64,000 bases of DNA from an uncultured Fibrobacterota bacterium (lineage in GTDB: Bacteria; Fibrobacterota; OXYB2-FULL-49-7; JAEUSG01), in contig CAZPWS010000003.1 in the NCBI GenBank assembly GCA_964590225.1, positions 11,899 to 75,898 on the forward strand, in the 5' to 3' direction. The notes under the pieces were generated by a model, which was not told where the DNA came from, searched no databases, and worked only from the letters and a program-made list of their open reading frames with translations. The position numbers were made by a program, and so were the translations under genes. Positions 8,645 through 34,766 of this stretch are shown here, in pieces (position 1 is the stretch's first letter; each line of letters starts with the position of its first letter).

Positions 8645-9760
8645 ATGGGCTATTTTAATTCAGAACTTATATCGTCGGACTCCCTATGGCAGATGACATT
8701 CATTGTCTTAGCCATTTTATTCGCCGGGCTTTTATTTGTTTCGTTTATCGCAATTTTTAAACATTTCCAGAACAATAAGATTAGCAATACTATGATGCTT
8801 CTTCAACCGCGCTTTGATCAGCTTGTTCTGGACGGGCGCGAGGGGCGTTACGATAGAGGGATAATAGTGGCTTTAATTTGTACCAAGCATTATCCCTATT
8901 TTGAGCGATTTCTGCGAAATCGTATTGCTTCCATTGATTCGCTGGATGTTTCGGTAGAGCGGAAATTGTCTGAGATGTCTGGTTTTACAGAGTGGACAAG
9001 AAAAAGGGCAAATACTTCAAGGGGGTGGCGCCAAGCTAATGCATTGCGTACCCTCTCTTATTTGCGAGACAGTCGCGATGCAGATATTTTCAGACATGCG
9101 CTTTCATCAAAGTTTTTCCAGAGCCGGTTTGTGGCAGCCATCGGCTTATCGCTGATCTACGATTCCGGGGCCATACCACTAATTATTAAAGCTTTGTCAA
9201 CTTCGGAACAGCCGCATCGTGATCTTCTATTGACCGTTTTGTCACCTTTAGTTCATTGCGCCGCTCCTTTGATGACTGAGCTTGTAATGGACAGTAGTAC
9301 AAGCGAACCTGTGCAATGTGTCCTAATAGACATACTGCGAGAGTCGGGGTATAAAGAGGCTTTTTTAGCTTTAAAAGAGAAGCTTTCTGTACCTAATGAA
9401 GATGAATTAACCATCCACCTGATTGAAGCGATAGGTATGCTTGGGCAGACAGGGGATGGTGCGTTTCTTCAAAGATGGGTGCAGCACGAAAATCCGTCTA
9501 TCCGTGTCAAGACAATTACGGCAATCAGTAAGCTTGATGGCGAAAAAGCTCTTCCTATAATAGAGCTGTATATGGAAGACAAATCATGGTGGGTAAGGCG
9601 TGCAGCGGCAGAAGCCCTTTACCGTATGGGAGGGATTGGACTCGCCAGGCTTAAAAAATTTGGAGAAGGTCCTACCGGTACATTTGCATCCGATGTAGCG
9701 CGCCTGATACTTGCCGAGGTCGAATTTGGCAGACTTAAGGGAGAACCGGTACATGCTTGA
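8645..9760 (+). CDS. inner-membrane HEAT/PBS-lyase-repeat protein (1 N-terminal TM); first gene of EPS module
   Basis: N-terminal TM (FIVLAILFAGLLFVSFIAIF). Repeated alpha-helical HEAT-like units (...WWVRRAAAEALYRMGG...). Its stop overlaps the start of the next gene (ATGCTTGA). Confidence 0.5.
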   Translation: MGYFNSELISSDSLWQMTFIVLAILFAGLLFVSFIAIFKHFQNNKISNTMMLLQPRFDQLVLDGREGRYDRGIIVALICTKHYPYFERFLRNRIASIDSLDVSVERKLSEMSGFTEWTRKRANTSRGWRQANALRTLSYLRDSRDADIFRHALSSKFFQSRFVAAIGLSLIYDSGAIPLIIKALSTSEQPHRDLLLTVLSPLVHCAAPLMTELVMDSSTSEPVQCVLIDILRESGYKEAFLALKEKLSVPNEDELTIHLIEAIGMLGQTGDGAFLQRWVQHENPSIRVKTITAISKLDGEKALPIIELYMEDKSWWVRRAAAEALYRMGGIGLARLKKFGEGPTGTFASDVARLILAEVEFGRLKGEPVHA

Positions 9761-14029: not shown

Positions 14030-14902
14030 ATGTCAAAAATACTGAATGTGTATGCAAAAATATCCAAGCTCCGTGAGCGCTATTATGTTTCCATTAAGGG
14101 AAAACAATCACTTTTAGGTCTGCTCTCAGACAATGAAGTTGCAGAACAGGTTTATAACTCTAATGCTATAGAAAATAGCACTCTTACCTTAGAAGAGACG
14201 GAAAAAATTCTTCTTCAGATTGATCTGGATAGATACATTACAGAAAGAGAAATTTTTGAAGCAAAAAACCTCTCTCGTGTTGTTTCTTACATTGATAAGA
14301 AAGCTAAAGAGCAGGAGCTTGATCTGGACATGATATTGCTGCTGCATAAAATGCTTATGTCAAATATCAGGGATGATGTAGCCGGCAGGTTTAGAAAAGA
14401 GGGAGAGTGGGTAAGAGTTGGAAACCATATAGCTCCAGATTCTAAATTGGTGCATGGACTGCTTGAAAATATGATAACTGAATACAATGCCCATAGCAGC
14501 GAAAATATCATAAAACGGATAGCGCTCCTTCATCTTACATTTGAAAACATTCATCCTTTTGTTGATGGAAATGGCCGTATTGCCAGGGCATTAAACAATT
14601 ATTTGCTCATTCGAGAAGGTTTTGTACCAATTAGCATAAAGTTTATTGATCGAAAAATGTATTATAATGCTTTTCAGCAGTTTGATAAAAATAACTCAAT
14701 GTCAATAATGGAGTCTATAGTTGGTCGGGCGCTTGCAAACAGCTATCACAAGAGGCTTGCATATCTGGAAGGTAAGAGCATAATTACGCTTAAAGAATAT
14801 GCAAGAAGCAGCAAAATGTCATACTCAAACTTGCTCAACAAGGCAAACCGTCAAACAATTGAAGCGTTTATTGAAAAAGGTGTTTGGAAAATAGGCGAGT
14901 AA
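14030..14902 (+). CDS. Fic/DOC family protein (AMPylator-type)
   Basis: HPFVDGNGRIARAL matches the Fic active-site motif HPFx(D/E)GNGR. The length (290 aa) is typical. Confidence 0.8.
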   Translation: MSKILNVYAKISKLRERYYVSIKGKQSLLGLLSDNEVAEQVYNSNAIENSTLTLEETEKILLQIDLDRYITEREIFEAKNLSRVVSYIDKKAKEQELDLDMILLLHKMLMSNIRDDVAGRFRKEGEWVRVGNHIAPDSKLVHGLLENMITEYNAHSSENIIKRIALLHLTFENIHPFVDGNGRIARALNNYLLIREGFVPISIKFIDRKMYYNAFQQFDKNNSMSIMESIVGRALANSYHKRLAYLEGKSIITLKEYARSSKMSYSNLLNKANRQTIEAFIEKGVWKIGE

Positions 14903-16236: not shown

Positions 16237-17166
16237 ATGAAAATAAATTGCTTTAATATCAATTTCTTCATATCTTTGCATAGAAGGAATGGAGAAAAAA
16301 TGATACCTTGCATATTCGATTATACCGACTATAAGAAATATCTGGCAGAGCTTTATAAGGTAAGGAAGGCCGAGAATAAGGGGTTCTCGTACAACGCCCT
16401 TTCTATGCGTGCGGGATTTAAGAACAAGGGCTTCATTTACAATGTTATAAATAGCAATAAGCGGTTATCCAAAGAAAGTACAATAAAACTTTCTATGGCG
16501 CTTAATCATAATAAACAGGAAACTGAATATTTCGAAAATCTTGTTTTTTTTAACCAGGCCGAAGAGCTCAAAGAGCGTAACTACTATTATGAAAAACTGA
16601 TTGCAGTTAAACCATGCAAGCAAAATGTTGGCGAAGCATACAAACTTATGCAGGATCAATATGCGTATTACTCCGATTGGCGAAACAGCGCCATCCGCTC
16701 GTTAATTGGCCTATATCCATTTAAAGATGACTATGCATGGCTCGCAAAAAGTCTCTATCCTCGGATAAAACCTAAAGAGGTAAAAAAGTCTATTCAGCTA
16801 CTGGAAAATCTTGGACTCATCAAAAAGGGTAAAGACGGAATTTACAAACTCGCTGAAAAACATATTACAACTGGCAAAGAAGTTACAGGTCTTGCAGTGC
16901 AAAACTTCCACAAAGCGTCTGCGATACTTGCATCGGAAGCAATAGCTAACCTGCCCAAGAGCAAGCGAAACATCACGGGAATTACGCTTGGTATTTCAAA
17001 AAAGACCTACACACGAATATGTGAAGAGATTGCACAATTTCGTAGTCGTATTATCGATCTTGCAGATTCTGACGAAGGGGCTGATCGCGTGTATCAGCTC
17101 AATTTTCATTTTTTCCCCATTTCAAATATTGATAACCAACTTTCTAAAACAGGAGATAAGGTATGA
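16237..17166 (+). CDS. TIGR02147-like (Fibrobacter succinogenes paralogous family) putative HTH protein
   Basis: MIPCIFDYTDYKKYLAELYKVRKAENKGFSYNALSMRAGFKNKGFIYNVI resembles the N-terminus of the Fibrobacter TIGR02147 family. The likely true start is the internal Met at 16300. Its stop overlaps the start of the next gene (ATGA). Confidence 0.45.
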   Translation: MKINCFNINFFISLHRRNGEKMIPCIFDYTDYKKYLAELYKVRKAENKGFSYNALSMRAGFKNKGFIYNVINSNKRLSKESTIKLSMALNHNKQETEYFENLVFFNQAEELKERNYYYEKLIAVKPCKQNVGEAYKLMQDQYAYYSDWRNSAIRSLIGLYPFKDDYAWLAKSLYPRIKPKEVKKSIQLLENLGLIKKGKDGIYKLAEKHITTGKEVTGLAVQNFHKASAILASEAIANLPKSKRNITGITLGISKKTYTRICEEIAQFRSRIIDLADSDEGADRVYQLNFHFFPISNIDNQLSKTGDKV

Positions 17167-18902
17167 AAACCTTTCTGAACATCACCAACAAGTTCGCAGT
17201 ATTAACACTAATAATGATTCTTTCAAAATGCAGTCAGGAAGGGCCACTTGCTGGCAACACTTCTGAAACTGGAAATGCTGCTGTAAAAGGAATTCTATAT
17301 ACCGAAAATGGACAACCAGCAGTCAATGCAGAGGTCAAACTTATAACATCAGACCATCGGCCAGGGCCAAACCTTGCTAAAACAGAAGCAGTTGTAACAA
17401 CAACATACACCAACGCTCAAGGCGTTTATGAATTTAGCAGTATGCCAAGAAATTTTTATAATGTCCTTTGTAAAAGTAATGGTGCTAATGCTTTTATAGA
17501 TTCAATCTATTTGCAGCCAAATCAAATAACAGAGGTTGAAAATAAAACACTCAAATCGCCAGGATCATTACACGGCGTAGTTCGTCTTCAGCCAGGAGAC
17601 GATAACCGAAGTGTTCTTATTATTCTTTTTGGAACAGATTTCTTTACTACCACTGTTGATACTTCGGGCAAATTTAACATTACTCACATTGCAGAAGGTA
17701 GATACAATGCAATGATCTATGTTCTGAATACTGCTGGTGTATATGAACCATTTGACACTGTTTTTACTATACGCTCAGGGAAAACAGACACTCTTGGAGC
17801 AATAATATATCCTAATCTTACAAGTATTCCTGTTGTTACCGGATTTACATCTGAATATGATGATGTTAGGCAGGTTGTTACTTTGAGGTGGAATAAACCT
17901 ATAAACGGTGAAGTGGCGGGATATGATATATACCGAATGCATCAGGATTCGGCTTTCAAGAAAATTAACATCGTTACTTTGACGGATACTCAGTATGAGG
18001 ATGGCATAAATAGCATACTCATGCCTGAATATACCTATAGCTATAAAGTAGTTGGTGTTGATAAGGATGGAAACGAAGGAAACAAAAGCATAACAACAAA
18101 CCAAACAATAAGGCAGGCATTTTCAATTGCTGACACAATCATTATGTCGGGTTCGGGTATAAAAGTAATGTGTGCGAATGATAAAGGTGATTTATTCGCC
18201 CTTAAAGAAAATGGAGATGTGGAAGTTTATAATAGCAATTTCACGAAAATTGGCAGCTTCAACATTGCTACAATTTTGCCAAATTATTATGACATCTATA
18301 CTGTCAATGATGGAAAAATATATTTTCCATCTGGAAACAGCGATACTCGCATGATAGATTCGTTAGCTGGAGACTCATCTTTACCATACGGCATATTACG
18401 ATTTGATTATAACGGTAATCTTGAAGAAACAATACCTATAAATCATCCTATGCAGCCAGGCGACGAATTCCTTAAGTACAACAATAACTATTACTTTGGT
18501 AAGTTTCACAACATATTTTATTCGCCAACGACTGAACCATTTACAATAGATTCATTTGAATGTCCCAAAAGAAACAACTATAGTCTAACACAACTAATTG
18601 GGATCAATAACGATAAGTTAATTTTTGCTGACTATGGTGAATTCTTCATTACAAATACTGATGGCGCTCTTGTTTCTAACATAAAATTACCGCCACATAC
18701 ATATCCACGAGGTATTTGGAATGGCATTATAATTTCTCAGAACTTATCAGGCACGGTATATGATGGCTACACAATAAAAGGTGAACTTGTATTCAGATGC
18801 ATTGTTGAACCACTTGGTATGTGGGCTCATCCTATATCATATTTTGATGAACAATTGATACTTTTGTGTGCTGATGGTAGTGTGATAAAAATTTCCAAGT
18901 AA
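17163..18902 (+). CDS. lipoprotein with carboxypeptidase-regulatory-like (Ig-like) and fibronectin-III-like domains
   Basis: Signal peptide with a Cys (LTLIMILSKC). Two segments of the pattern G-x-V...G-x-P...A-x-V. The Fn3-like stretch (LRWNKPINGEVAGYDIYR). Translationally coupled to the TIGR02147-like gene. Confidence 0.4.
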   Translation: MKTFLNITNKFAVLTLIMILSKCSQEGPLAGNTSETGNAAVKGILYTENGQPAVNAEVKLITSDHRPGPNLAKTEAVVTTTYTNAQGVYEFSSMPRNFYNVLCKSNGANAFIDSIYLQPNQITEVENKTLKSPGSLHGVVRLQPGDDNRSVLIILFGTDFFTTTVDTSGKFNITHIAEGRYNAMIYVLNTAGVYEPFDTVFTIRSGKTDTLGAIIYPNLTSIPVVTGFTSEYDDVRQVVTLRWNKPINGEVAGYDIYRMHQDSAFKKINIVTLTDTQYEDGINSILMPEYTYSYKVVGVDKDGNEGNKSITTNQTIRQAFSIADTIIMSGSGIKVMCANDKGDLFALKENGDVEVYNSNFTKIGSFNIATILPNYYDIYTVNDGKIYFPSGNSDTRMIDSLAGDSSLPYGILRFDYNGNLEETIPINHPMQPGDEFLKYNNNYYFGKFHNIFYSPTTEPFTIDSFECPKRNNYSLTQLIGINNDKLIFADYGEFFITNTDGALVSNIKLPPHTYPRGIWNGIIISQNLSGTVYDGYTIKGELVFRCIVEPLGMWAHPISYFDEQLILLCADGSVIKISK

Positions 18903-19277: not shown

Positions 19278-19478
19278 AGCCGGTATTCTATATGGGGCTT
19301 AAAAGTGATATCCCTTTTGGGCTTAGCGAGGATTCGTTTTATTTCGATTTTGCCAATTTGCTCCGGCAATACAAATCCATAGATGTCAATGGATAATTTA
19401 CGGGCCGGCAATATTGTCTCAAAACCTTGTTTCTGCTTTATAATTTGTTGGATACAGGAGAAGAAAAAGAAGCCTTTC
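19277..19478. repeat. direct repeat copy B (partner of 13654..13878); overlaps the 3' end of holA
   Basis: tatatggggcttaaaagtgatatcccttttgggcttagcgaggattc...gatacaggagaagaaaaagaagcctttc. It lacks the 35 nt hairpin segment present in copy A. Confidence 0.7.
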
Positions 19479-20528
19479 CATGCTTGGCAGGGAATGGTTA
19501 AAAGAGCCGTTTGATTTTAGATCCCAATCGGCGGTTGTTAGAAGGTTAACGCAGTATTTCAGGTTCGCAATTGAATAATTCGACAGCTGAGAAAGTACCT
19601 TCGGAAGAAAGATATATCGATATACACTTTTGGGTGTCATTAACTTTTCGCCGCTGAAACCGGACTCGTTTGCCGCTTTTGCCATTAGCGCGCCAAAAGC
19701 ATCTTTTGTTTTTATTCGGCCATTTGCCAGTTTTTGGGCTTCGGTGAACTTTCCTTCGTTGCTGGCAAACCATAGTTTTAGCATAAGTAGCTTTACAAAT
19801 GAATCGAAGAGTGCCGAAACAATTTGAATTGAGTGAACATTGTAGGCAAATAGGTTATGCAGTATTGAAAGCGAAGTTCCGCTCTCTCCCCGTAAAAGAG
19901 GGGGGGGTAAATCCCACGGTTTGCATGCTCTTGACAGTGTAGTGTATTCATTTACTGCACTTTCAGAAATTTCCTGTCGTGGAGGAAGAACAATGTCGAT
20001 TTTGGTCAATTCCGACACGATGGTATGTAATTCGTTACCTACCCGTTCAAACAGTATGTTTGCCGCTCTATTGCTGATTTTTCTGCCAAACCTTGTAAGC
20101 GTTTCTTGTACAATCCATTCAGAAATTTCGTAATCTTGCGGAACTGGAAAATATTCAACTGCAATGTGTGTAGGCGGCTTTGAAATAAGTTTCTTGAAAG
20201 GATGTTTTTCGGCCACTTTTCCGCCGATTGTTTTACCTTCAAGTAAAAGTATAGATGAGGAGCTTTCCTGAAGCATATATGGGACAAGGTCTTCAAGTGT
20301 GTCGGATTTCAGAGTGTCACAGCCACGGACAAGTATAGTAGTTTTTTCTCCAAATAAGGAGCCCGCCCCAAGCTTTTCTCCTATGTCTGAAGCTAAAATG
20401 TCAGAAGCATGATACACCTCTATAGAACTTCCTTTTGCACTCGAAGGGGGTTCTTTCTTTAGAATGGCCTTTATTCGGTCTTCTTTATTGGGCGTGTGTC
20501 CACCTATCAGTATGTGTATTGTTGTCAT
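19419..20528 (-). CDS. holA: DNA polymerase III delta subunit
   Basis: Pattern ...SLFGEKTTILVRGCDTLKSDTLEDLVPYML...ILLLEG...WIVQETLTRFGRKISNRAANILFERVGNELHTIVSELTKIDIV fits the HolA family. 369 aa. Confidence 0.55.
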   Translation of the reverse strand: MTTIHILIGGHTPNKEDRIKAILKKEPPSSAKGSSIEVYHASDILASDIGEKLGAGSLFGEKTTILVRGCDTLKSDTLEDLVPYMLQESSSSILLLEGKTIGGKVAEKHPFKKLISKPPTHIAVEYFPVPQDYEISEWIVQETLTRFGRKISNRAANILFERVGNELHTIVSELTKIDIVLPPRQEISESAVNEYTTLSRACKPWDLPPPLLRGESGTSLSILHNLFAYNVHSIQIVSALFDSFVKLLMLKLWFASNEGKFTEAQKLANGRIKTKDAFGALMAKAANESGFSGEKLMTPKSVYRYIFLPKVLSQLSNYSIANLKYCVNLLTTADWDLKSNGSFNHSLPSMERLLFLLLYPTNYKAETRF

Positions 20529-20628
20529 GTTTTAGGAAAGATAAACCATGTTAAAGGTAAAAAACTATGTGATTTGCTCTTGTAAAAAAATAGTTGCGAA
20601 AAAAAAGAAATGATGCTATATTTGCATC

Positions 20629-22896
20629 ATGAGGGTGGAGGAATCCAGTTTAGTTCGTTCGCTTAAAACAGAAACTATAAAATGTGATCTATGTGTAACA
20701 GGTGGCGGTATTGCAGGTGTTGCATGTGCTGTTACTGCCGCAAGAGCTGGAATTGCGACAGCTCTGATTCAGGATCGTCCTGTGCTTGGTGGTAATGCCA
20801 GTAGTGAAATAAGGGTGTGGATAAGTGGCGCTACTGCCCATATGGGAAGCAATAACCGCTGGTCGAGAGAGGGCGGATTAATCAATGAACTGCTTCTCGA
20901 AAATTGTTACAAAAATAAGGGGGGGAATCCGGTTGTCTTTGATTCAATTTTATTAGATAAAGTTTTGCGAGAAGAAAAGATAACTCTTCTATTGAATACT
21001 GCCGTATTTGAGGTTGTAAAGAGTGATGCCAAAACAATATCGTCGGTAAAGGCATTCTGTCCGCAGAATAGTACCATGTATTTGATCTCTGCTCCGCTTT
21101 TTTGTGATGCTTCGGGAGATGGAATAGTTGGCTATCTCTCAGGTGCCGCTTATAGAATTGGTGCCGAAGATACCAGCGAGTTTAACGAAACTATGGCACC
21201 CGACGATTCTTTTGGTAGGCTGCTTGGTCAAAGTCTTTATTTTAATACAAAAAAAGCAAATGCTTCTGTGGATTATTATCCTCCCTCTTTTGCACATTTA
21301 TGCGATGAAATTGAAAATATACCGAGACATAAACAATTAAATCCTTCTGCGGAGGGCTGTCATCTCTGGTGGCTCGAATATGGAGGACGACTTGATCCTG
21401 TTCACGATACTGAGAAAATAAAAAGAGAATTATGGAAGATTTCTTACGGAGTTTATAACTATTATAAGAATTCAAAAAGGTTCTTGAATACAGAGAACAG
21501 GCAACTTGAGTGGATGGGAGCAATTACGGGTAAAAGAGAAAGCAGAAGGTTTGAGGGTGACTATATTCTTTCGCAGAATGATCTATTAACGCAAAAGGAG
21601 CATTGTGATGCTGTAAGCTATGGCGGATGGTCCATAGACCTCCATCCGGCAGATGGCATATACGACAAGAACGCAGGCTCGATTCACGGTTATATAAGTG
21701 GTATTTATCAAATACCTTTTCGCACTATGTATAGTCGCAATATTAACAATCTTTTCCTCGCGGGAAGGTTGATAAGCGCTTCGCATGTGGCGTTTGGCAG
21801 CACCAGGGTTATGGCTACCTGCGCTCACTCAGCTCAAGCAGTGGGAACCGCTGCTGCAATTTGTGTCAAGAAACAAATTGTTCCGCGAGACCTAATTGGG
21901 AACGATTATATCGCAGAATTGCAAAGAGAGCTCATAAAAAGCGGGCAATATATTCCCGGATATAAGTTTGTTGATAAATTAGACATGGTCGCGACGGCAC
22001 GCCTATCAGCGAGCAGCTCTCTGGCGACTATTTCGTTTCCTGACAGCAATAAGCTTGTTGCACTTTGTACGCCGCTTGCGCAACTTGTTCCAGCGACTAT
22101 GGGCTGTGTTCCACAGGCAACATTTATTGCGGATGTCGAGCAGCCGACGAAGTTGGAGATAGAAATAAGAATTAGTAAAAAAAGAATCAATTTTACTCCG
22201 GCAATCACCCTTGCAAGAAAGGAACTTATCCTTGAGAAAGGTAAGAATATTCCGATTGTGTTTGATTTTCCAGTTATCTTAAATGAGTCGCAATATTTAT
22301 TTTATTGCTTCGGAAAAAATGATTTAATAAGTTTGCACGCAACGGAAAAAAGGATTACGGGGGTCTTGACTGTGAGATATAATGGAACAGAGTCGCATAT
22401 GTGCTTGCTTGGTTTTCCCGATGTGGAAATGTGGGTGCCGGAGAGAAGACCCGATGGATTTAATCTTGCTGGTTTTATAGGCTGCGATTCGTCTCTATTT
22501 TCTGTAAATAACATTACAAATGGGATAAATAGACCGCTTATAACACCCAATGCTTGGGTTGCTGCTCTTGATGATGTTTTACCATGGGTAAAGCTTGAGT
22601 GGAATATGGCGCAAAAAATACGCAGAGTTCAAATTGAGTTTGATAGCGATTACGACCATTCGCTGGAATCCGTTAACTGGGAACATAGCGATTCCGCTAT
22701 GCCATTTTGTGTAAAAAGTTTTATTATTGTTGACGAGAGAGGGTGCGAGCTATATAAAAACGATGGCAATTATCAGGGACTACTGGATATTGTATTGGAT
22801 CGGCCGGTAGTTGCGCGGAGTTTGACTATTAAAATATTGGAAATATGGGGAAACGCTCCAGCGGCAATTTTCGCGATTCGTTGCTATTCAGAGTAG
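20629..22896 (+). CDS. FAD-dependent oxidoreductase (FAD_oxidored/pfam12831-like) with long C-terminal extension
   Basis: N-terminal dinucleotide-binding motif CDLCVTGGGIAGVACAVTAARAGIATALIQDRPVLGGNASSE. 755 aa. Confidence 0.6.
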   Translation: MRVEESSLVRSLKTETIKCDLCVTGGGIAGVACAVTAARAGIATALIQDRPVLGGNASSEIRVWISGATAHMGSNNRWSREGGLINELLLENCYKNKGGNPVVFDSILLDKVLREEKITLLLNTAVFEVVKSDAKTISSVKAFCPQNSTMYLISAPLFCDASGDGIVGYLSGAAYRIGAEDTSEFNETMAPDDSFGRLLGQSLYFNTKKANASVDYYPPSFAHLCDEIENIPRHKQLNPSAEGCHLWWLEYGGRLDPVHDTEKIKRELWKISYGVYNYYKNSKRFLNTENRQLEWMGAITGKRESRRFEGDYILSQNDLLTQKEHCDAVSYGGWSIDLHPADGIYDKNAGSIHGYISGIYQIPFRTMYSRNINNLFLAGRLISASHVAFGSTRVMATCAHSAQAVGTAAAICVKKQIVPRDLIGNDYIAELQRELIKSGQYIPGYKFVDKLDMVATARLSASSSLATISFPDSNKLVALCTPLAQLVPATMGCVPQATFIADVEQPTKLEIEIRISKKRINFTPAITLARKELILEKGKNIPIVFDFPVILNESQYLFYCFGKNDLISLHATEKRITGVLTVRYNGTESHMCLLGFPDVEMWVPERRPDGFNLAGFIGCDSSLFSVNNITNGINRPLITPNAWVAALDDVLPWVKLEWNMAQKIRRVQIEFDSDYDHSLESVNWEHSDSAMPFCVKSFIIVDERGCELYKNDGNYQGLLDIVLDRPVVARSLTIKILEIWGNAPAAIFAIRCYSE

Positions 22897-22916
22897 TTTG
22901 AATTAAGGAGGAGATC

Positions 22917-24056
22917 GTGATAACTGTAAATAGCAATTTTCCAGGCGGTAATATTATTCTTGAGTCTGTAGATGGAGATACCGTTTATCTCCATCAGGAT
23001 CTTCGTGATACGGTTGAAGATTGGTTTTACTGGTATTTTTCTGTAAATAACGCTCAGGATAGACTCGTCAGATTTGTTTTTACAAAAAGCCAAGCAATTG
23101 GCGTAAGGGGTCCTGCAGTGTCCTTGGATAAGGGGCAAACATGGCGCTGGCTTGGAAAAGATGTAGGCTCGGGCAACAGTTTTTCCTATCGGTTTTGCCC
23201 AACAGATAACGAAGTCAGATTTTCATTTGGCATGCCCTATCTCGAATCTAATTGGAATAGTTTTTTTGGTTCACAGCTTGCTGATTCGTCATTAATAAAA
23301 AAAAGTGTTCTATGTACTACACCAAAGGGGCGCGAGGTAGAGTTGCTTACCATATCTAATCCCTCAAAGCCTTTAAAATGGAGGGTCTTAATAACATGTC
23401 GACACCACGCGTGCGAGATGATGGCGAGCTATTCACTTGAAGGTTTAATTAGCTATATAGTCAAGAGTAAGACGGAAGATGCGATGTGGCTGAGGGAAAA
23501 TATTGAATTTGTTATAATCCCTTTTATGGACAAAGATGGCGTTGAAGATGGAGATCAGGGAAAATCTCGCAGCCCCCACGACCATAATCGGGATTATATA
23601 AAGCATGGAATTCATTCGTCGGTTCAGTCACTAATGAAAAAAACCGATTTATGGATTGACAATAAGTTGGTAGCCGCTATCGATCTGCACTGTCCCTGGA
23701 TAAAAGGGTGGCATAACGAGGATATATATCTTGTAGGAAGTCAAGATGATGTAATGGCTCAGCGGCAAAAGGTGTTCTCCAGAATAATTGAGCAGTCTGT
23801 GAAAGGGGAACTTCCCTTTAATGCGTCCAATTTTCTTCCTTTTGGCAAAGAATGGAATACAACAATCCCTTCTGAAACAAGAGCCTGTTTTCACCATTGG
23901 GCCGAAACGATATCAGGCATAAAAATGGTTACTTCTATGGAAATTCCATACGCAAATGCTGGCGGCAAAGAGGTTAATGCAGAATCGGCTAGTAGCTTTG
24001 GTACTGATCTTGCCGCATCAATATATGCTTATCTTAAAGAGATGGAGCGGTTATGA
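22917..24056 (+). CDS. M14-like zinc peptidase/deacylase fold protein
   Basis: H-x-x-E (RHHACEM) followed by an N-R-D motif (PHDHNRDY) and a later DLH. Spacing is compatible with M14 zinc ligands and the substrate-binding NR. Confidence 0.4.
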   Translation: MITVNSNFPGGNIILESVDGDTVYLHQDLRDTVEDWFYWYFSVNNAQDRLVRFVFTKSQAIGVRGPAVSLDKGQTWRWLGKDVGSGNSFSYRFCPTDNEVRFSFGMPYLESNWNSFFGSQLADSSLIKKSVLCTTPKGREVELLTISNPSKPLKWRVLITCRHHACEMMASYSLEGLISYIVKSKTEDAMWLRENIEFVIIPFMDKDGVEDGDQGKSRSPHDHNRDYIKHGIHSSVQSLMKKTDLWIDNKLVAAIDLHCPWIKGWHNEDIYLVGSQDDVMAQRQKVFSRIIEQSVKGELPFNASNFLPFGKEWNTTIPSETRACFHHWAETISGIKMVTSMEIPYANAGGKEVNAESASSFGTDLAASIYAYLKEMERL

Positions 24057-25354
24057 AAATAAAAACAGTTACAGAACCTGAAAGAAAAATACCAATAAAG
24101 GGCGAATTTGATGTACTTGTTGTAGGAGCTGGTCCTGCTGGATTTAGTACTGCTTTATCTGCTGCAAAAATGGGAGCTAAAGTAGCTATTGTGGAACAAT
24201 CCGGTGTTATTGGCGGAATAGCAACCGCTGGTTTAATGAGCCATTGGGGAGGCAGTGCCGACTCTTCAATTTTGAGAGAACTGCTTTTAAGAGTAAATAA
24301 ACCATGGCCGGAAGAACAGCTATATTGTGAGAGTGTGATATCGCACGGGAAGCTTGGGATAGTTATGAAGGAAATGCTCCTCGAACATGGTGTTGAGGTT
24401 TTCCTTTATACTTTTGCCGCGGATGCCATAATGTCAAATAATAAGATTATAGGAGTGGCAATAGAAAATAAAAGTGGGCGGCAGGCACTTCTTTCTAAGG
24501 TCATTGTAGATGCTTCCGGGGACGGGGACATCGCAGCTAAGGCTGGAGCAGAATTCACAAAAGGGCGTGAAGGTGACAATAAAATGCAGCCTGTAACTTT
24601 GATGTTTAGCATCGGAGGCGTGGATGAAAAATGTGCTCTGTATCCCGGCTCGTTCGAATCTAATCTTGATACTCCACGGGGAAAAATTCAAGACCTCGCA
24701 AGTAAACATCTGCCCCGTCCGGCCGGACATGCTCTTCTTTATAGATCTGCACTTCCTGGAGTTGCTGTTGTAAATATGACAAATGTAACCGGTATGGATG
24801 GAACTAATACCGATGATCTGGTCAGGGCAGATACCATTTGCAGAAGTCAGATTTTGCCGATACTGAATTTTATACGGGAGTTTGTGCCAGGCTATTCCCA
24901 TTCCTTTTTACTCTCGATAGCTTCGTTTATTGGTGTTCGTGAGACACGACATTTTATTGGGGAATATACGCTTAATGAAAATGACATATTGAACTCCCGT
25001 ACCTTTGACGATTGGATTGTTGTAAATGCACAATTTAACTTCGATATACACAATGTTGACGGGCCCGGTCTTGATAAGAACGGCGCACAGCATAATTTTC
25101 CAAAAATCAATGGATATAGTATCCCATATCGCTCTTTTGTTCCAAAGACAGTTGATGGCCTTTTGCTTGCCGGCAGAAATATTTCAGGTACTCATAAAGC
25201 GCATTCGAATTATAGGGTAATGACGATTTGTGCTGCCATGGGTGAAGGTGTCGGTATAGCTGCTGCTATGGCCTCTATGGAGCAAATTGAGCCAAGGTAT
25301 ATCAATGTAGCTTCTGTACAGAGTGTACTTAAAAAGAGAGGCATTGCTCAGTGA
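24053..25354 (+). CDS. FAD-dependent oxidoreductase (FAD_oxidored-like)
   Basis: DVLVVGAGPAGFSTALSAAKMGAKVAIVEQSGVIGGIATAG is a Rossmann GxGxxG motif. 4 nt overlap with the upstream gene. Confidence 0.6.
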   Translation: MKIKTVTEPERKIPIKGEFDVLVVGAGPAGFSTALSAAKMGAKVAIVEQSGVIGGIATAGLMSHWGGSADSSILRELLLRVNKPWPEEQLYCESVISHGKLGIVMKEMLLEHGVEVFLYTFAADAIMSNNKIIGVAIENKSGRQALLSKVIVDASGDGDIAAKAGAEFTKGREGDNKMQPVTLMFSIGGVDEKCALYPGSFESNLDTPRGKIQDLASKHLPRPAGHALLYRSALPGVAVVNMTNVTGMDGTNTDDLVRADTICRSQILPILNFIREFVPGYSHSFLLSIASFIGVRETRHFIGEYTLNENDILNSRTFDDWIVVNAQFNFDIHNVDGPGLDKNGAQHNFPKINGYSIPYRSFVPKTVDGLLLAGRNISGTHKAHSNYRVMTICAAMGEGVGIAAAMASMEQIEPRYINVASVQSVLKKRGIAQ

Positions 25355-26217
25355 ATACCTATACGGCAAGCGACTGGATTAGGGATCGCAACTTTCCTTT
25401 CATGATTAATACAACAAGACACAGTGTTAGTCATGAGATACACAAACATGAATTTTTTGAGTTTTTCTTTGTAACGGAAGGGCGCTGCCGCCATATTATT
25501 GACGATGCTAAACAGACTATTGCTGATGGCGATCTCATTCTTATTAAGCCTGGGCATAGTCATGGATTTGAGCCATTCATGGACGAGAAATTTGAAATTA
25601 TCCAGGTACTTTTCTTGCCTTCTATGTTAAATATTAGCCCATTACATTACAGTAAATCTAACCGGCTAGTAGAACTTTTCTGGTTGCAACCATTCGCAAA
25701 CAACGGGTGTGAACGGCTCCGTTTTGTAGGTGATATTGGTGTTAAATTAAAGTTATTGCTAAATGAAATGCTTGTGGAATTCACCAATAAGGCTGAATGC
25801 TTTGAAATGGCAATAGAAGCAAAGCTGCTCGATTTTATGCTTACAATAGCAAGAAATTTCGATAAAGGGTTGATGTCGGAAAAAAAGAATGCTCCATTTT
25901 CACACTCTGCGAAAGCTATCTCGAAGTCACTTGCCTATATTCATAACAATTTTCGGCAAACAATAGAACTTGAAGAATTGGCAAAAAAGGCCGGAATAAC
26001 AAAGGAGTATTTCTGTTCGCTTTTTAAGCGAATGACCAATACCTCGCTCACTGATTATATCAACCATCTTAGAATTGCTGAAGCAAAACGGTTGCTCTTA
26101 TATAGCAAGTTAAGTATAACGGATATCTGTTACGAATCGGGTTTTAATGATTTAAGTTATTTTTCGCGACTGTTTAAGGCAATGACCAATATGTCGCCTA
26201 AAAAATATAGGGGTTAA
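25351..26217 (+). CDS. AraC family transcriptional regulator (cupin + HTH)
   Basis: C-terminus ...ELAKKAGITKEYFCSLFKRMTNTSLTDYINHLRIAEAKRLLLYSKLSITDICYESGFNDLSYFSRLFKAMTNMSPKKYR. Overlaps the upstream gene by 4 nt. Confidence 0.7.
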   Translation: MNTYTASDWIRDRNFPFMINTTRHSVSHEIHKHEFFEFFFVTEGRCRHIIDDAKQTIADGDLILIKPGHSHGFEPFMDEKFEIIQVLFLPSMLNISPLHYSKSNRLVELFWLQPFANNGCERLRFVGDIGVKLKLLLNEMLVEFTNKAECFEMAIEAKLLDFMLTIARNFDKGLMSEKKNAPFSHSAKAISKSLAYIHNNFRQTIELEELAKKAGITKEYFCSLFKRMTNTSLTDYINHLRIAEAKRLLLYSKLSITDICYESGFNDLSYFSRLFKAMTNMSPKKYRG

Positions 26218-28298
26218 CTCGGCTTTGTACCTTTACACACAGGATATCTTGAGCAGCCGTAGAAAGTTTTAACTTTACCATCTTTCTTATCGGTGTATTT
26301 CCGTTCTGCCATGTAGGCGTTGCAAAGTGGACAAAGTGTTTCTGTCTCAATATTTAACTGTGTAGAATTACCGCACTTGATACATTTTAGATAGTCACCA
26401 TTTTTCCCTTTATACTTACGGAACTTGATTTTGCAGCGACCGCACTCTTTTTCAGATGCTTCGAACTCAAGGTTTTCTTTCCTACCACAGGACAAACATA
26501 CTGCAAAACGGCCAAATTTTCCTGATAGGGCGCCCATTTCACCGCCGCAGGATGAGCATGGCTCGGAATGTTTCAACATATTTTTGCTGTGTGTGCTAAC
26601 AGGATTTTCTCGCGCATAATCAGAAAAGCAACTCTTTGCCTTTTTCATTAATGCTGTCCATTCGCTAAACCAGTTATTCATAAAATTCTTATATTCATCA
26701 CCTGCCTCGGATATGGTGTCTAAATGCTCTTCCAGGATTTTTGTAAAATCTGGGGTAGTAGCATCGGGCATGGCGCGGTTCAAAAGTGCGATGCATTTTG
26801 TGCCGGTCTCTGTTGGATGTAAAAACCCCTTTTTGTCCTCGACATAATAACCACGATCAAGTGGAGTTTGCACAATTGATGAAAAAGTTGATGGTCGGCC
26901 GAATCCAAGCCGCTCTATTTCTTTTGAAAGCGTGGCCAGTTTAAAACGGGGAGGAGGTTTAGTTTCTTGCGAAGCGAAGAGGTACTTGTCAACAATAGCC
27001 GGTTCCCCTTGCGAAAGAGAGATCGAAACCGTGCCGATATCTTCTTCTTCACCGCTATTTTTCTGCTCTGGCATTTCGTCCGCATATATTTTTGTAAATC
27101 CGGGAAAAACTTCAACTCTATTTCGCAATAAAAAATAAATGGCAGAAGGTGTTTCAAAAACCACATCCTGCCGATTAAAAACCTGCGGTTTGCACTGCGA
27201 AGCTAAAAAACGGTTTCTAATTAATAGGTAAAGAGACAGTTCGTCCTTGTTTCCTTTAAGCTCGTTGGAGTCGTCGGGATGGGTGGGTCTGATACATTCA
27301 TGCGCACCCTGCGCGCTTTTTTTAGCCTGATATACAACTGGCTTTTCAGCCATAACATCAGGGTATTCAGCTTGCAGCACCTCTTTGGCAAGGCTTAGCC
27401 CCTCGTCGGAAATGGCGACGCTGTCTGTTCTGATATAGGTAATGTGCCCTTTATGGAAAAGTGACTGCAATAGGGATGTTGTTTTGGCAGGTTTGAATTT
27501 CAGTTTTGCAGCAGCATCTGTAATAATAGTGCTTGTAATAAATGGAGGACGGGGTTTTTTATCTTCGCGGAATTCGTTTATTGAGTGAACCTTATGTTCC
27601 TTTTCTGAGTTTAGGCGTATCAATAAGGCATCAAGATTTTCTTGCGTATCTATTTTGGAAACCTTGTATTTACCCTCTTTGTCCGGAATCGCGTGTTCCG
27701 CGGTGAATCCATCTTTGTAAACAGCTTTCAGCGAGAAGTATTTTCGGGGCTTGAAGTTTGTAATTGCCTCTTCCCTTTGAACAACAATACTCAGGCATGG
27801 GGTTTGACAGCGGCCAGCCGAACGCATTCCGAACCTCTGAATTTCGGGACTTAGCTGATAGCCGAAGATACGGTCAACCGCTCGTCTCGCTCTATACGCA
27901 TCAACAAGATTCATGTCAATTACCCGTGGAGCGTTAAGTGCTTTTTTTACCTCATCCTTTGTGATGCTGTTAAAGCAGACCCTGTTTAGGGCTGTGGTGT
28001 TAAGCTTAAGCAGGCGGCTCAAATGCCACGCGATTGCTTCTCCTTCTCTATCGGGGTCCGAAGCAAGGAATACTGCCTCAGCTTTTGCTGCCTGCGCTTT
28101 AAGCTTGGCAACAACATCAGCCTTTGATTTGCTGATCTGGTATTTTTGTTCAAATCCGCCGGAATTTAGATCGATGGCCATGTCATCAGCCGGCAGATCG
28201 CAAACATGGCCAACCGATGCCGCTACACCCCATGTGCTATCAAGAAAGGTCTTAAGTTTCTTGATTTTGTTGGGTGATTCAACAATCAGCAGTTTCAT
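26214..28298 (-). CDS. topA: DNA topoisomerase I (type IA) with three C-terminal zinc ribbons
   Basis: Toprim N-terminus MKLLIVESPNKIKKLKTFL. C-terminal CxxC...CxxC repeats (CSSCGG...CLSCG, CGRCK...CIKCG, CPLCN...CSRYPVCKG). Confidence 0.8.
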   Translation of the reverse strand: MKLLIVESPNKIKKLKTFLDSTWGVAASVGHVCDLPADDMAIDLNSGGFEQKYQISKSKADVVAKLKAQAAKAEAVFLASDPDREGEAIAWHLSRLLKLNTTALNRVCFNSITKDEVKKALNAPRVIDMNLVDAYRARRAVDRIFGYQLSPEIQRFGMRSAGRCQTPCLSIVVQREEAITNFKPRKYFSLKAVYKDGFTAEHAIPDKEGKYKVSKIDTQENLDALLIRLNSEKEHKVHSINEFREDKKPRPPFITSTIITDAAAKLKFKPAKTTSLLQSLFHKGHITYIRTDSVAISDEGLSLAKEVLQAEYPDVMAEKPVVYQAKKSAQGAHECIRPTHPDDSNELKGNKDELSLYLLIRNRFLASQCKPQVFNRQDVVFETPSAIYFLLRNRVEVFPGFTKIYADEMPEQKNSGEEEDIGTVSISLSQGEPAIVDKYLFASQETKPPPRFKLATLSKEIERLGFGRPSTFSSIVQTPLDRGYYVEDKKGFLHPTETGTKCIALLNRAMPDATTPDFTKILEEHLDTISEAGDEYKNFMNNWFSEWTALMKKAKSCFSDYARENPVSTHSKNMLKHSEPCSSCGGEMGALSGKFGRFAVCLSCGRKENLEFEASEKECGRCKIKFRKYKGKNGDYLKCIKCGNSTQLNIETETLCPLCNAYMAERKYTDKKDGKVKTFYGCSRYPVCKGTKPS

Positions 28299-32624: not shown

Positions 32625-34766
32625 TTATTTCATTAGCATTACTCTCTTGAGCATTGTTCTTTCTCCAGTCAGGACTTTTACCAAATAAAGTCCGGAAGGC
32701 ATTCCTGTTGCATTCCAATCAGCTCTATTTCCCCGTAGAGAGTTTGTTAAATCTACAATTTTTTGTCCGCTAACTCCATATATGCCTACCTCTCTGATAT
32801 AACTTATTTCGTGCAGTACAATATTTATGGCGGGGTTGAATGGATTTGGCGTTACTGTTAAATATGGCATTTTCCCTGAGCTAACAGAAGCAGCATCATT
32901 CGAAGTTGTTCCCCCACCACCGAAGGCCTCGCGGGTATCGTATGCAACGAGGTCGATATCAACCCCCTCCTTGGATATAATAATCAAGTAGTTAATATAT
33001 CCTCTTATGTTAAGATTAAGTCCATTATCTGTCCGTAGCTCGATAGTATCAGTAGTTATGCTTTTTGTTGTTTTATTTGTGGTGAATTTTACAAGGGTGT
33101 CGTTTCCGTCGCCGGAAAGCTTTTTTACAAGAGGATCATCATCCAGTCTAAGAAGGCAAGTTTTGCCACTCAAGTATTCGCCCATACAAACTTTTATAAT
33201 GTAGTCACCGTCGGGTATGTTAAGCTTAAAGGTTCCTTCATCGTATTTTGCCCAAGCTCCTGGAGAAACAGCCGTGCTTCTGATAAATAAACTATCATGG
33301 AAATCAATCATATTTCTATTTATGGACAGATTGCTGCTGCTCGGTTTATTTACGGTCCAGCCATAGCCCCGCACTGGATCGTAAACTCTGTTCCATTCTG
33401 TATCCCAGTGTTCACTGAACATGGTGTCGTATGGCTGGAAATTGATTCTTCGTATTACGGATAGTTTTTGGGCCATAACAAAGGCAACAGAATCTGTTTT
33501 GCCATCTTTTTCTATTCTTAAAACCATGTCACCGCCCTCTGCACCAATCCTCTCAAGGTAACCGTTTGTCACTTTAAATTGTGTAGTGTCGCTCGATAGC
33601 CACTCAACAGCACCATCAAGATTGGTTATAAAACTCTGATCTCCCTTAGTAAAATATCCATTTGCTGTGAACTTGAATCCGTTTTCGACATATCCGGTTA
33701 TCTGTTTTGGTGTAATTGCCACTGAATCCAGAATAGCTGTGCTTGGTACAATATCAACTGAGAGCGTCTCCCTTTCTGTTTCGCGCCAAACTTCGATGCA
33801 TGCTCTGCCAATCTCTTTTGCTGTTACAGTTCCATAATAATCAACCGAAGCGATGCTTGGTGTAAGCGATGAATATACTGCGTTTACCGAATTGCTTTCT
33901 ATCGAGTCGTTTTCGTAGATAAAGTCAACATTAATTTTAAAAGACAAATATCTCTCAATCGATGAGATATTGTCCGAAAGGTCTATGCGTTTTACCCTCA
34001 CTGGCTCCGCTGTCCACGGAGGCAGATTACTTTTCATCCGTTCAGTCATTGTGACATTCCACGCTACTTGCTGTATAAAGTGTTTTGTAACTGAATCAAC
34101 AAGTGGGTTAGGATTAGCAATTCTTCCCGTAGGATTTTCGCGGAATAGTGTTGCAACCCAGACGCAGGCAGCAAGATATTTTTGCCATTCGGTAGGATGG
34201 GTTCCATCTGATGTGACTCTAAACCCTTTTTTAACAAGTTCCTGAGAACCGACTGCCACAGGTGAGGCATATACAAAGCTGGGTTCAGCCAATTCGAAAT
34301 TAACCTCATTAAGTGTATCCTGCATATTCACCGACCATTCTCCGTTAGCTTCAGTAAAAATAAGCGGTGCTACTGTGCCCTGCATTCTTCGCATCCACAA
34401 TATTGGAATTGACCCCACGCTATCAATTATGCGCGCCAACTCTCGTCCTGTTGCAATGTAGTTTGCTTTATAGGTTTCGTACGAACCGGTTGGATTATAC
34501 AGCGCCATCATTTCCACATAATGAAAAACACCACTCCTGATTGTATCCATTAACGATGTATCTCTCAAAACAGCCTCCCATGAAGTTGTTTTTGGGGCGT
34601 AGTAGTATTTGACGGGAATGCCCCGTTCGGCGGCAAATTTTTTGACATCTTCGGGGGTTTGTGCTCTTGAGCTGCTGCCAAGCCAGCAAATATTTATTGT
34701 GTCTGCTGCATGCAAGCTAAGTGCCAAGAAGAAAACAAGCAAGATTGTTTTTGCTTCGGATTTCAT
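32625..34766 (-). CDS. secreted protein with Ig-like (Big_2) domain and T9SS C-terminal sorting domain
   Basis: Signal peptide. A Big_2-like stretch (AVYSSLTPSIASVDYYGTVTAKEIGRACIEV). C-terminus VTPNPFNPAINIVL...WNATGMPSGLYLVKV, typical of Por secretion tails. Confidence 0.5.
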   Translation of the reverse strand: MKSEAKTILLVFFLALSLHAADTINICWLGSSSRAQTPEDVKKFAAERGIPVKYYYAPKTTSWEAVLRDTSLMDTIRSGVFHYVEMMALYNPTGSYETYKANYIATGRELARIIDSVGSIPILWMRRMQGTVAPLIFTEANGEWSVNMQDTLNEVNFELAEPSFVYASPVAVGSQELVKKGFRVTSDGTHPTEWQKYLAACVWVATLFRENPTGRIANPNPLVDSVTKHFIQQVAWNVTMTERMKSNLPPWTAEPVRVKRIDLSDNISSIERYLSFKINVDFIYENDSIESNSVNAVYSSLTPSIASVDYYGTVTAKEIGRACIEVWRETERETLSVDIVPSTAILDSVAITPKQITGYVENGFKFTANGYFTKGDQSFITNLDGAVEWLSSDTTQFKVTNGYLERIGAEGGDMVLRIEKDGKTDSVAFVMAQKLSVIRRINFQPYDTMFSEHWDTEWNRVYDPVRGYGWTVNKPSSSNLSINRNMIDFHDSLFIRSTAVSPGAWAKYDEGTFKLNIPDGDYIIKVCMGEYLSGKTCLLRLDDDPLVKKLSGDGNDTLVKFTTNKTTKSITTDTIELRTDNGLNLNIRGYINYLIIISKEGVDIDLVAYDTREAFGGGGTTSNDAASVSSGKMPYLTVTPNPFNPAINIVLHEISYIREVGIYGVSGQKIVDLTNSLRGNRADWNATGMPSGLYLVKVLTGERTMLKRVMLMK

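Follow-up and report, generated by a model that had tools for sequence, protein, structure and literature searches.

We have analyzed a cluster of four genes in a 64,000-nt stretch of DNA from an uncultured Fibrobacterota bacterium (contig CAZPWS010000003.1, positions 11,899 to 75,898; the whole stretch is called here the window). The genes lie on the plus strand and code, in this order, for a 755-residue flavoprotein (FAD755), a 379-residue protein of the M14 carboxypeptidase type, a 433-residue flavoprotein (FAD433) and a cupin-AraC regulator (Table 1). A 20-nt gap separates the first two genes, and the other two junctions are 4-nt overlaps, ATGA between the M14 and FAD433 genes and GTGA between the FAD433 and regulator genes. 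A first-pass annotation of the window had described four tightly coupled genes with these junctions and domain types, and both the open reading frames (ORFs) and a Pfam profile search agreed with it. The M14 gene is preceded by a clear Shine-Dalgarno (SD) sequence, and purine-rich SD-like sequences are found ahead of the FAD433 (GGAG) and regulator (AGAGG) starts. The 4-nt start/stop overlaps and the 20-nt gap with its SD argue for co-expression of the four genes, which appear to form one tightly packed and probably translationally coupled unit. A single promoter-like site lies in the gap upstream of the cluster; the genes themselves contain weak matches of promoter and terminator type, about as often as shuffled sequence does.

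The cluster is flanked by two housekeeping genes on the opposite strand, a holA-like gene and topA. The latter is convergent with the regulator gene, and the stop codons of the two overlap by 4 nt in a shared TTAA tetranucleotide (26214-26217), leaving no space for a terminator between them. The GC content of the cluster (0.41) is the same as that of its flanks and, with horizontal transfer in mind, we looked for mobile-element genes at the cluster and found none. Signal peptides are absent from all three enzymes.

The middle protein is predicted to be an intact zinc hydrolase of the M14D type. It matched Peptidase_M14 (PF00246) with 50.3 bits over residues 123-227 (cut-off 21.6), and the HxxE...NRD...H features pointed out in the first-pass annotation are indeed present, as H164-x-x-E167, N224-R225-D226 and H258, together with a catalytic-type glutamate, E342. 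H258 and E342 were assigned from motif context (D-L-H-C and T-x-E, respectively) and from the full-length fold alignment, not from model coordinates. The zinc residues (H164, E167 and H258) and the general base (E342) were invariant in 40 homologues and were kept in the metagenomic partners described below, and R218 and R225 were invariant or nearly so in the family, N224-R225 being the carboxylate-binding pair. The closest solved proteins by sequence were the bacterial cytosolic-carboxypeptidase (CCP)-like M14 proteins 4a37 (P. aeruginosa), 4b6z (B. cenocepacia), 3k2k and 3l2n, with a family profile E value of 5e-22.

The proposed M14 fold also held in structure prediction. The AlphaFold2 model, built on the alignment of 40 homologues, reached a pLDDT of 92.6 and a pTM of 0.92, and consists of an N-terminal beta-sandwich, the strands of which are confidently placed, followed by a carboxypeptidase domain. 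Foldseek aligned it over its full length with the four bacterial proteins and with the eukaryotic CCP5 (8v3m-8v3s), with TM values of 0.77-0.82 at 17-19% identity (E = 2e-26 to 4b6z), whereas carboxypeptidases A, B and T matched in the catalytic domain only (TM ~0.5). The window protein thus shares with M14D CCP-like proteins the two-domain architecture, the HxxE/H zinc triad, the catalytic glutamate, the N-R carboxylate clamp and the N-domain motifs F-x-x-G-N-[IL] and W-F-[YH]; its F8-P-G-G-N12-I and W36-F-Y38 align with ADFDSGNI and QWFHF of 4a37. Precomputed PF18027 assignments exist for several of its homologues. It differs from the CCP-like proteins by its low identity, by a diverged C-terminal half with the subfamily-invariant W313, N314 and W328, and by an invariant acidic loop of its own (D-x-D-G-V-E-x-G-D-Q-G-K). 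Position 327, a candidate for the basic S1' residue that in CCPs sets the preference for acidic C-terminal residues, is arginine in most homologues, histidine in the window copy and variable elsewhere, and lies beyond residue 232, where the CCP profile alignment stops. About one-third of the aligned homologues carry N-terminal extensions resembling signal peptides, which the window copy does not have. The subfamily is large, with 3,643 homologues found.

To our knowledge, the bacterial CCP-like proteins have no established substrate. Other M14-fold zinc hydrolases, namely MpaA (murein tripeptide amidase) and AstE/AspA (succinylglutamate desuccinylase and aspartoacylase), cleave an amide beside a free carboxylate in small non-protein substrates and do so without a CCP-type N-terminal domain. 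This is the kind of reaction that we propose below for the window enzyme, which had no AstE_AspA match in Pfam or NCBIfam. Of the families named in the first-pass annotation, Peptidase_M14 and PF12831 were recovered above their cut-offs and AstE_AspA was not matched. NCBIfam gave a family-level name to none of the three enzymes.

Both flavoproteins belong to PF12831. Over profile positions 1-416, FAD755 scored 291.3 bits (residues 20-435) and FAD433 332.1 bits (residues 20-426), against a cut-off of 27, and their Pfam DAO scores were at or below cut-off. The dinucleotide-binding GxGxxG motif is intact in each (GGGIAG in FAD755 and GAGPAG in FAD433), and both are predicted to bind flavin adenine dinucleotide (FAD). 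The two are paralogues with 28% identity. PF12831 is an uncharacterised branch of the flavoproteins with two dinucleotide-binding domains, defined by sequence only, and its nearest solved folds are the FrdA/SdhA flavoprotein, APS/PAPS reductase, geranylgeranyl reductase, Thi4 and group-A flavin monooxygenases, all of them matches to the FAD domain. A lead from old annotations, "xanthan lyase," was followed in the literature and dropped, as the matches were to an author name only.

FAD755 extends beyond the PF12831 domain by ~316 residues of beta-sandwich, for which Pfam had no match even at E<=10. Its AlphaFold2 model (pLDDT 74) is confident in the FAD domain and in two C-terminal beta-sandwiches. 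Foldseek found only distant relatives (FrdA/SdhA of fumarate reductase and succinate dehydrogenase, APS/PAPS reductase and flavin monooxygenases) for the protein and, for its C-terminal part, factor VIII and 8ayr_B, the latter from an A. muciniphila sialidase/fucosidase study. Full-length FAD755 orthologues are very numerous (750-765 residues, ~50% identity, mean column identity 66%) and include cultured Chitinophagaceae, Sphingobacteriaceae and Ktedonobacteria. Orthologues of FAD433, at 55-63% identity, come from Spirochaetota, Lindowbacteria, Kiritimatiellia and Clostridia.

The product of the last gene is, by its domain profile, an AraC/XylS member of the sugar-sensing cupin-AraC type and the orthologue of no named regulator. 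It matched HTH_18 (87.1 bits, residues 210-287), HTH_AraC (60.6 bits), AraC_binding (37.3 bits) and Cupin_2 (36.1 bits). The nearest NCBIfam models were RhaS, AryK and HpaA, all far below their cut-offs (RhaS, 91.5 vs. 288 bits). The architecture, a cupin/AraC_binding domain with a double helix-turn-helix (HTH), is that of RhaS, RhaR, AraC, ChbR and MelR. In contrast to the divergent placement seen in RhaS/AraC-type systems, the regulator gene here is the last, overlapping gene of the operon that it presumably controls.

We have then looked at the region upstream of the operon, where a consensus scan found a promoter-like element (TTGCGA, a 17-nt spacer and a TG-extended TATATT). It was the sole such match in the 100-nt intergenic region, although such matches were no more frequent in the scanned region than in shuffles. 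The -10-like TATATT ends 6 nt ahead of the ATG at 20629 and no SD precedes this start, unlike those of the internal genes; hence, the first gene, and with it the transcript, may be leaderless. The same arrangement, a -10-like hexamer (TAATAT, TATGAT, TTTAAT or TATATT) 6-7 nt before the start and no SD, is seen at several first genes of the window (3750-4925 on the minus strand, 8645-9760 on the plus strand, 39321-40559 on the minus strand and the gene starting at 20629), whereas internal operon genes have an SD. Leaderless mRNAs may be frequent in this organism. The -10 region can also be read as the Bacteroidetes-type TAnnTTTG, a promoter assignment that we discarded, the motif not being enriched upstream of other window genes.

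The operon start also carries the perfect 7-bp inverted repeat that the first-pass annotation had reported. The repeat exists, but spans 20610-20630 and not 20606..20626, that is, it lies 4 nt further to the right. The -10-like TATATT sits in its loop, and its 3' arm ends with the A and T of the ATG. The window contains 69 perfect inverted repeats of 7 bp when spacers of 3-12 nt are allowed (1.08 per kb), against a shuffled mean of 43. At that density, a stretch the size of the 100-nt intergenic region would hold ~0.11, which makes the palindrome suggestive but not significant alone. As RNA it would fold into a hairpin of -7.8 kcal/mol, but a transcript beginning at 20629 would leave it out. 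We considered a role at the RNA level unlikely, the hairpin standing upstream of the likely transcription start and no Rfam family being found in the window. A functional palindrome would more probably work on the DNA around the -10 than serve as an AraC site: it may be an operator overlapping the -10, a repressor-type position that is atypical of AraC proteins, or else be due to chance. The only candidate AraC half-sites are weak direct repeats upstream of the -35 (Table 1), which are short, A-rich and present in two copies, and which may also have arisen by chance. The searched collections held no close relative for a comparison of upstream conservation, the nearest M14 homologue being 53% identical.

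Whether the enzymes travel together was addressed from both sides of the operon. From the M14 side, we scanned genomes, one per species, and obtained 80 loci from Planctomycetota, Lentisphaerota, Kiritimatiellia, Latescibacterota, Chloroflexota, Bacteroidota, Verrucomicrobiota, Omnitrophota, Nitrospirota, Acidobacteriota and Sumerlaeia. A PF12831 gene lay within 10 kb of the M14 gene in 15 of them; when only the 33 loci reaching at least 5 kb in each direction are counted, the figure is 8. The two genes shared a strand in 15 of 16 cases. Direct adjacency was found with a FAD433-like gene upstream (L028 and L080, the former in the order LacI, FAD, M14) or with a FAD755-like gene downstream (L047, L087, L062 and L083), and the taxa with abutting genes were Lentisphaerales, Planctomycetaceae, Planctomycetales, Anaerolineaceae, Caldilineales and Bacteroidales. 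Among 192 same-strand operon partners of M14, PF12831 and Peptidase_M16 were tied as the commonest enzyme families (nine each); ABC permeases (11), sulfatases (5), SBP_bac_1 (4), GH3 (3) and SusD (3) also recurred.

The surroundings of the M14 subfamily set it apart from the CCPs, since it resides in glycan and sugar gene clusters. The Bacteroidota loci are classical polysaccharide utilization loci (PULs) in the order SusC, SusD, M14, GH3 and an 820-900-aa M14-like paralogue, followed by PF12831 or by GH43 and GH2, and other loci carry sulfatases, BNR_2, Kelch or rhamnosidase genes. A PF12831 clade of ~590-770 residues, in which Bacteroidota and Planctomycetota copies share 42-66% identity, had an M14 gene nearby in every sampled copy (Table 1). 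This M14-linked clade is distinct from both window flavoproteins and is 30-34% identical to FAD755.

From the flavoprotein side, a metagenome scan with FAD433 gave another 80 loci. In four of these (L101, L111, L126 and L131), the FAD433-type gene has as its direct neighbour an M14 gene that keeps every catalytic residue. The two genes overlap by ATGA in L111 and stand in the window's M14-then-FAD433 order in L126. All four window components, in a different order, were found on one 7.2-kb metagenome contig (L131, ERZ1034917.3199, 400-7082). One strand of it encodes a FAD433-like protein (52% identity), an M14 protein (35%) and a 566-residue PF12831 protein (41% to residues 46-446 of FAD755), and the other an AP_endonuc_2 protein, a small zinc-ribbon protein and a cupin-AraC regulator (26% over residues 25-286). 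The pair of FAD433-type and FAD755-type genes recurred in L097, L100 and L131, L100 being a complete sugar operon with a His-kinase, a response-regulator/AraC protein, SBP_bac_1, two permeases and the two flavoproteins. Among 124 operon partners of the FAD433 clade were BPD_transp_1 permeases (17), PF12831 (16), SBP_bac_1 (8), Metallophos (6) and AraC HTH (5), and tblastn placed AraC-type HTH genes in 25 of the 80 loci. One FAD433 orthologue (L092) sits in the order GH20, FAD, Gfo/Idh/MocA, AP_endonuc_2, Gfo/Idh/MocA, and another in a tandem PF12831 pair. Two FAD755 orthologues have GH97, GH2, GH106, GDSL esterases, Laminin_G_3 proteins and an AraC-hybrid regulator around them.

Co-conservation of M14 and PF12831, the absence of which would by its own terms have refuted the first-pass annotation, is therefore real but partial: the two are adjacent in several phyla and the four components meet again in L131, but most homologues of each gene occur without the others. 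This leaves room for the possibility that the cluster is a compact juxtaposition of individually useful genes between holA and topA that share no pathway, its palindrome and direct repeats being due to chance. Such an arrangement would fit the wide distribution of each gene family on its own, the origin of the best homologues of the three enzymes in different phyla, and the statistical weakness of the palindrome. We consider it very unlikely, since the start/stop overlaps and the short SD-bearing gap argue for co-expression, and the M14-PF12831 adjacency recurs across phyla, with the complete set on L131.

Taken together, we propose that the operon encodes a catabolic cassette that works in the cytoplasm, is induced by an effector and breaks down an imported sugar-derived compound with a free carboxylate and an amide bond; we give this reading a rough probability of 0.45. 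Its general part, a sugar-linked catabolic cassette, is more likely than the whole statement, and the specific substrate class less so. The compound would be, for instance, a sugar-amino-acid or glycopeptide-type conjugate, or an N-acylated or amino-acid-amidated sugar acid, and would enter through a transporter encoded outside the operon, since the operon has none. The cupin-AraC protein would bind the substrate or a breakdown product and activate the promoter-like element upstream of 20629, raising its own level as the product of the last gene. In the M14D-like enzyme, R225 and N224 would hold the substrate carboxylate, while zinc, bound by H164, E167 and H258, and E342 would hydrolyse the adjacent amide and release an amino acid or acyl group. 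The two PF12831 paralogues would act one after the other on the sugar-derived part, each by a flavin-dependent dehydrogenation or reduction, with the C-terminal beta-sandwiches of FAD755 possibly holding carbohydrate. Downstream keto-sugar chemistry would fall to enzymes encoded elsewhere which, in relatives, are encoded alongside (Gfo/Idh/MocA and AP_endonuc_2).

This proposal is close to the inducible catabolic module for a small molecule or glycan derivative that the first-pass annotation had suggested, and the sugar and glycan neighbourhoods of the relatives fit it, while inducibility, catabolic direction and substrate are inferred only. The same annotation did not recognise the composition from described pathways, and the literature that we searched likewise contained none with such a composition. 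As a kind, a regulator-linked catabolic operon is ordinary; it is the recurring M14D-like and PF12831 content that matches no pathway found, and the operon probably breaks down a sugar-derived compound by undescribed chemistry. In PULs and sugar-utilisation operons, SusC/D or an ABC transporter stands in the cluster together with glycoside hydrolases (GHs), an arrangement seen only in the clusters of relatives. The window's operon is thus not itself a PUL, yet functionally belongs with such systems.

Several observations weigh against the proposed cassette. The ORFs and Pfam matches of the window's cluster include no transporter, glycoside hydrolase or other sugar enzyme. On the enzyme side, the sequence-profile alignment of the M14 protein to CCPs covers residues 4-232 only, leaving the diverged C-terminal half with the specificity pocket unaligned, and the substrate lobe of FAD755 is a low-confidence part of its model. 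No PF12831 member with a solved structure was among the PDB sequence or fold matches, and neither a reaction for PF12831 nor a link between PF12831 and M14 was found in the literature searched. The linkage itself is limited: most M14 homologues have no PF12831 neighbour, no AraC gene was found near M14 homologues in the 80-locus genome scan, and an M14 gene was absent from all five FAD755 or FAD433 orthologue contexts that were inspected one by one. M14-PF12831 adjacency, compared with that of other ORFs in the same loci, was enriched only ~3-fold (7/143 vs. 10/585, p = 0.056); hence, the co-conservation argument rests on recurrence across phyla. Finally, the M16 peptidase pairs that accompany the M14 family (9 of its 192 partners) point to plain peptides.

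These M16 pairs are also in favor of a different role, namely the salvage of peptides or cell-wall peptides, in which the M14D-like protein would act as a genuine carboxypeptidase in the manner of CCPs or MpaA and remove residues from the C-terminus of imported peptides or muropeptides, with the flavoproteins oxidising the released (D-)amino acids or amines. All carboxypeptidase residues are intact, including the carboxylate-binding N-R pair, and the closest structures are CCP-type carboxypeptidases; moreover, an Opp-type permease lies near one M14 homologue (L087), and FAD433 relatives are annotated in some source databases as "glycine/D-amino acid oxidase-like." The flavoproteins, however, are PF12831 members and not DAO-type amino-acid oxidases, as their DAO scores indicate. 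Their neighbourhoods hold mostly CUT1 sugar transporters, GHs, Gfo/Idh/MocA and AP_endonuc_2 genes rather than peptide or amino-acid genes, and the M14 family itself is found inside PULs with SusC/D, GH3, GH43 and GH2. We therefore regard peptide salvage as unlikely.

The neighbourhoods recall the oxidative "keto-glycoside" routes of glycoside breakdown, which employ Gfo/Idh/MocA oxidoreductases and xylose-isomerase-like AP_endonuc_2 enzymes. These families, with CUT1 or SusC/D, occur in operons of relatives of the window flavoproteins (L092, and L131 for AP_endonuc_2), whereas the window operon itself has no Gfo/Idh/MocA, AP_endonuc_2, CUT1 or SusC/D gene. We know of no described version of the keto-glycoside, PUL or CUT1 routes in which a PF12831 flavin enzyme is combined with an M14 hydrolase.

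A further alternative is that the PF12831 proteins perform no net redox reaction, but use their flavin for transient oxidation and elimination, or in another non-redox role, and so break glycosidic or ether bonds, while the M14-like protein would remove acyl groups in an accessory role; this would make them, in effect, carbohydrate-active enzymes of a new class. The FAD433 orthologues come mainly from Spirochaetota, Clostridia and Kiritimatiellia, which are largely anaerobic lineages, and the operons examined contain no electron-transfer partner, having instead sugar transporters together with Gfo/Idh/MocA and AP_endonuc_2. FAD755 orthologues are placed among GHs as if they were GHs themselves, and the FAD755 beta-sandwiches resemble carbohydrate-binding modules. 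This last likeness, however, comes from low-TM Foldseek matches in a part where Pfam finds no such module, the folds resemble those of ordinary flavin dehydrogenases, reductases and monooxygenases, and the idea is purely inferential, no characterised member having been found. We find it quite improbable.

Table 1. Positions of the features in the window and, where a locus is named, in the homologue loci
Feature	Position	Strand	Description
holA-like gene	19419-20528	-	Housekeeping flank of the cluster
Weak direct repeats	20526-20592	+	CATGTTTTAGGAAA / CATGTTAAAGGTAA, 21-bp spacing; GTAAAAAACTA / GTAAAAAAATA, 25-bp spacing; upstream of the -35
Promoter-like element	20594-20622	+	TTGCGA (20594-20599), 17 nt, TG-extended TATATT (20617-20622); consensus scan
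Perfect 7-bp inverted repeat	20610-20616 / 20624-20630		ATGATGC-N7-GCATCAT; candidate operator or chance
FAD755 gene (PF12831 flavoprotein)	20629-22896	+	755 aa, ATG start
Shine-Dalgarno sequence	22905-22911	+	AAGGAGG, 5 nt before the GTG of the M14 gene
M14 gene	22917-24056	+	379 aa, GTG start
FAD433 gene (PF12831 flavoprotein)	24053-25354	+	433 aa, ATG start
Cupin-AraC regulator gene	25351-26217	+	288 aa, GTG start, last in the operon
topA	26214-28298	-	Housekeeping flank, convergent with the AraC gene
M14-linked PF12831 clade	L062:11225-12994		Copy near an M14 gene
M14-linked PF12831 clade	L076:7891-9750		Copy near an M14 gene
M14-linked PF12831 clade	L072:16277-17791		Copy near an M14 gene
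M14-linked PF12831 clade	L083:9513-11378		Copy near an M14 gene
M14-linked PF12831 clade	L050:5212-7533		Copy near an M14 gene
M14-linked PF12831 clade	L051:3412-5625		Copy near an M14 gene
820-900 aa ORF	L076:5078-7549		Downstream of M14/GH3 in a Bacteroidota PUL
820-900 aa ORF	L072:13444-15909		Downstream of M14/GH3 in a Bacteroidota PUL
820-900 aa ORF	L069:11131-13617		Downstream of M14/GH3 in a Bacteroidota PUL
820-900 aa ORF	L068:5631-8330		Downstream of M14/GH3 in a Bacteroidota PUL

Some further features of the homologue loci were recorded. The 820-900 aa ORFs of the Bacteroidota PULs in L076 and L072 cluster with the M14 subfamily by BLAST, as a second, longer M14-like paralogue. Those in L076 and L069 have weak C-terminal CBM35 or F5/8-type-C matches and no Pfam peptidase match, and the one in L068 has no Pfam match at all. 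In a Latescibacteria genome (GCA_022706085.1, L005:5087-16300), the gene order is sulfatase, M14, a 507-residue protein without Pfam match, PF12831, a Kelch beta-propeller protein, two BNR_2 proteins and PD40. The BNR_2 proteins are sialidase-like, and the series as a whole suggests that the substrate in this lineage may be a nonulosonic or acidic sugar.

Elsewhere in the window, a pair of genes upstream of the holA-like gene (16237-18902, plus strand) encodes a 309-residue DUF4423 protein and, with a 4-nt overlap, a 579-residue protein with CarboxypepD_reg and PL4-domain-II-like (fn3_3) matches. DUF4423 is typical of Fibrobacter-type genomes. Two minus-strand genes encode a 713-residue protein with a Big_2 domain and a Por_Secre_tail domain for type IX sorting (32625-34766) and a 1539-residue gingipain-like Peptidase_C25 protein with a FlgD_ig-type C-terminal domain (45246-49865); the two imply that a type IX secretion system is present. 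Together with the DUF4423 protein, they suggest a member of the Fibrobacterota-Chlorobiota-Bacteroidota (FCB) group, possibly Fibrobacterota. On the plus strand are a second AraC-type regulator of 670 residues with a long unannotated N-terminal part (34794-36806), a Fic-domain protein (14030-14902) and a GAF-GAF-GGDEF diguanylate cyclase (905-2737).

A broader reading, which we offer only as a tentative and rather unlikely one, is that M14D-like hydrolases and PF12831 proteins form an undescribed enzymatic step-pair of glycan and sugar-conjugate breakdown. The PF12831 proteins would be flavin-dependent carbohydrate-active enzymes, either oxidising or cleaving through transient oxidation, and the "carboxypeptidase" a carbohydrate amidase or de-acylase acting on acidic sugars decorated with amino acids or acyl groups. 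The step-pair would be widespread in PVC bacteria, Bacteroidota, Chloroflexota, Latescibacterota and several largely anaerobic lineages and, if real, would amount to two new CAZy-type families. If the pairing does not reflect a pathway, the cluster would be one more uncharacterised catabolic operon. PF12831 and the M14 subfamily are both very large, with thousands of homologues at ~50% identity, and both are found in the glycan-degrading clusters of environmentally dominant polysaccharide degraders (Planctomycetota, Lentisphaerota, Kiritimatiellia, Bacteroidota, Latescibacterota and Chloroflexota). The window operon represents a minimal module, transporter-free and cytoplasmic, with three enzymes and its own ligand-sensing regulator, and is thus a convenient experimental handle. 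Should the pairing prove to be a genuine pathway, a function would be given to a slot that recurs as "unknown" in annotated PULs and in clusters rich in sulfatases.

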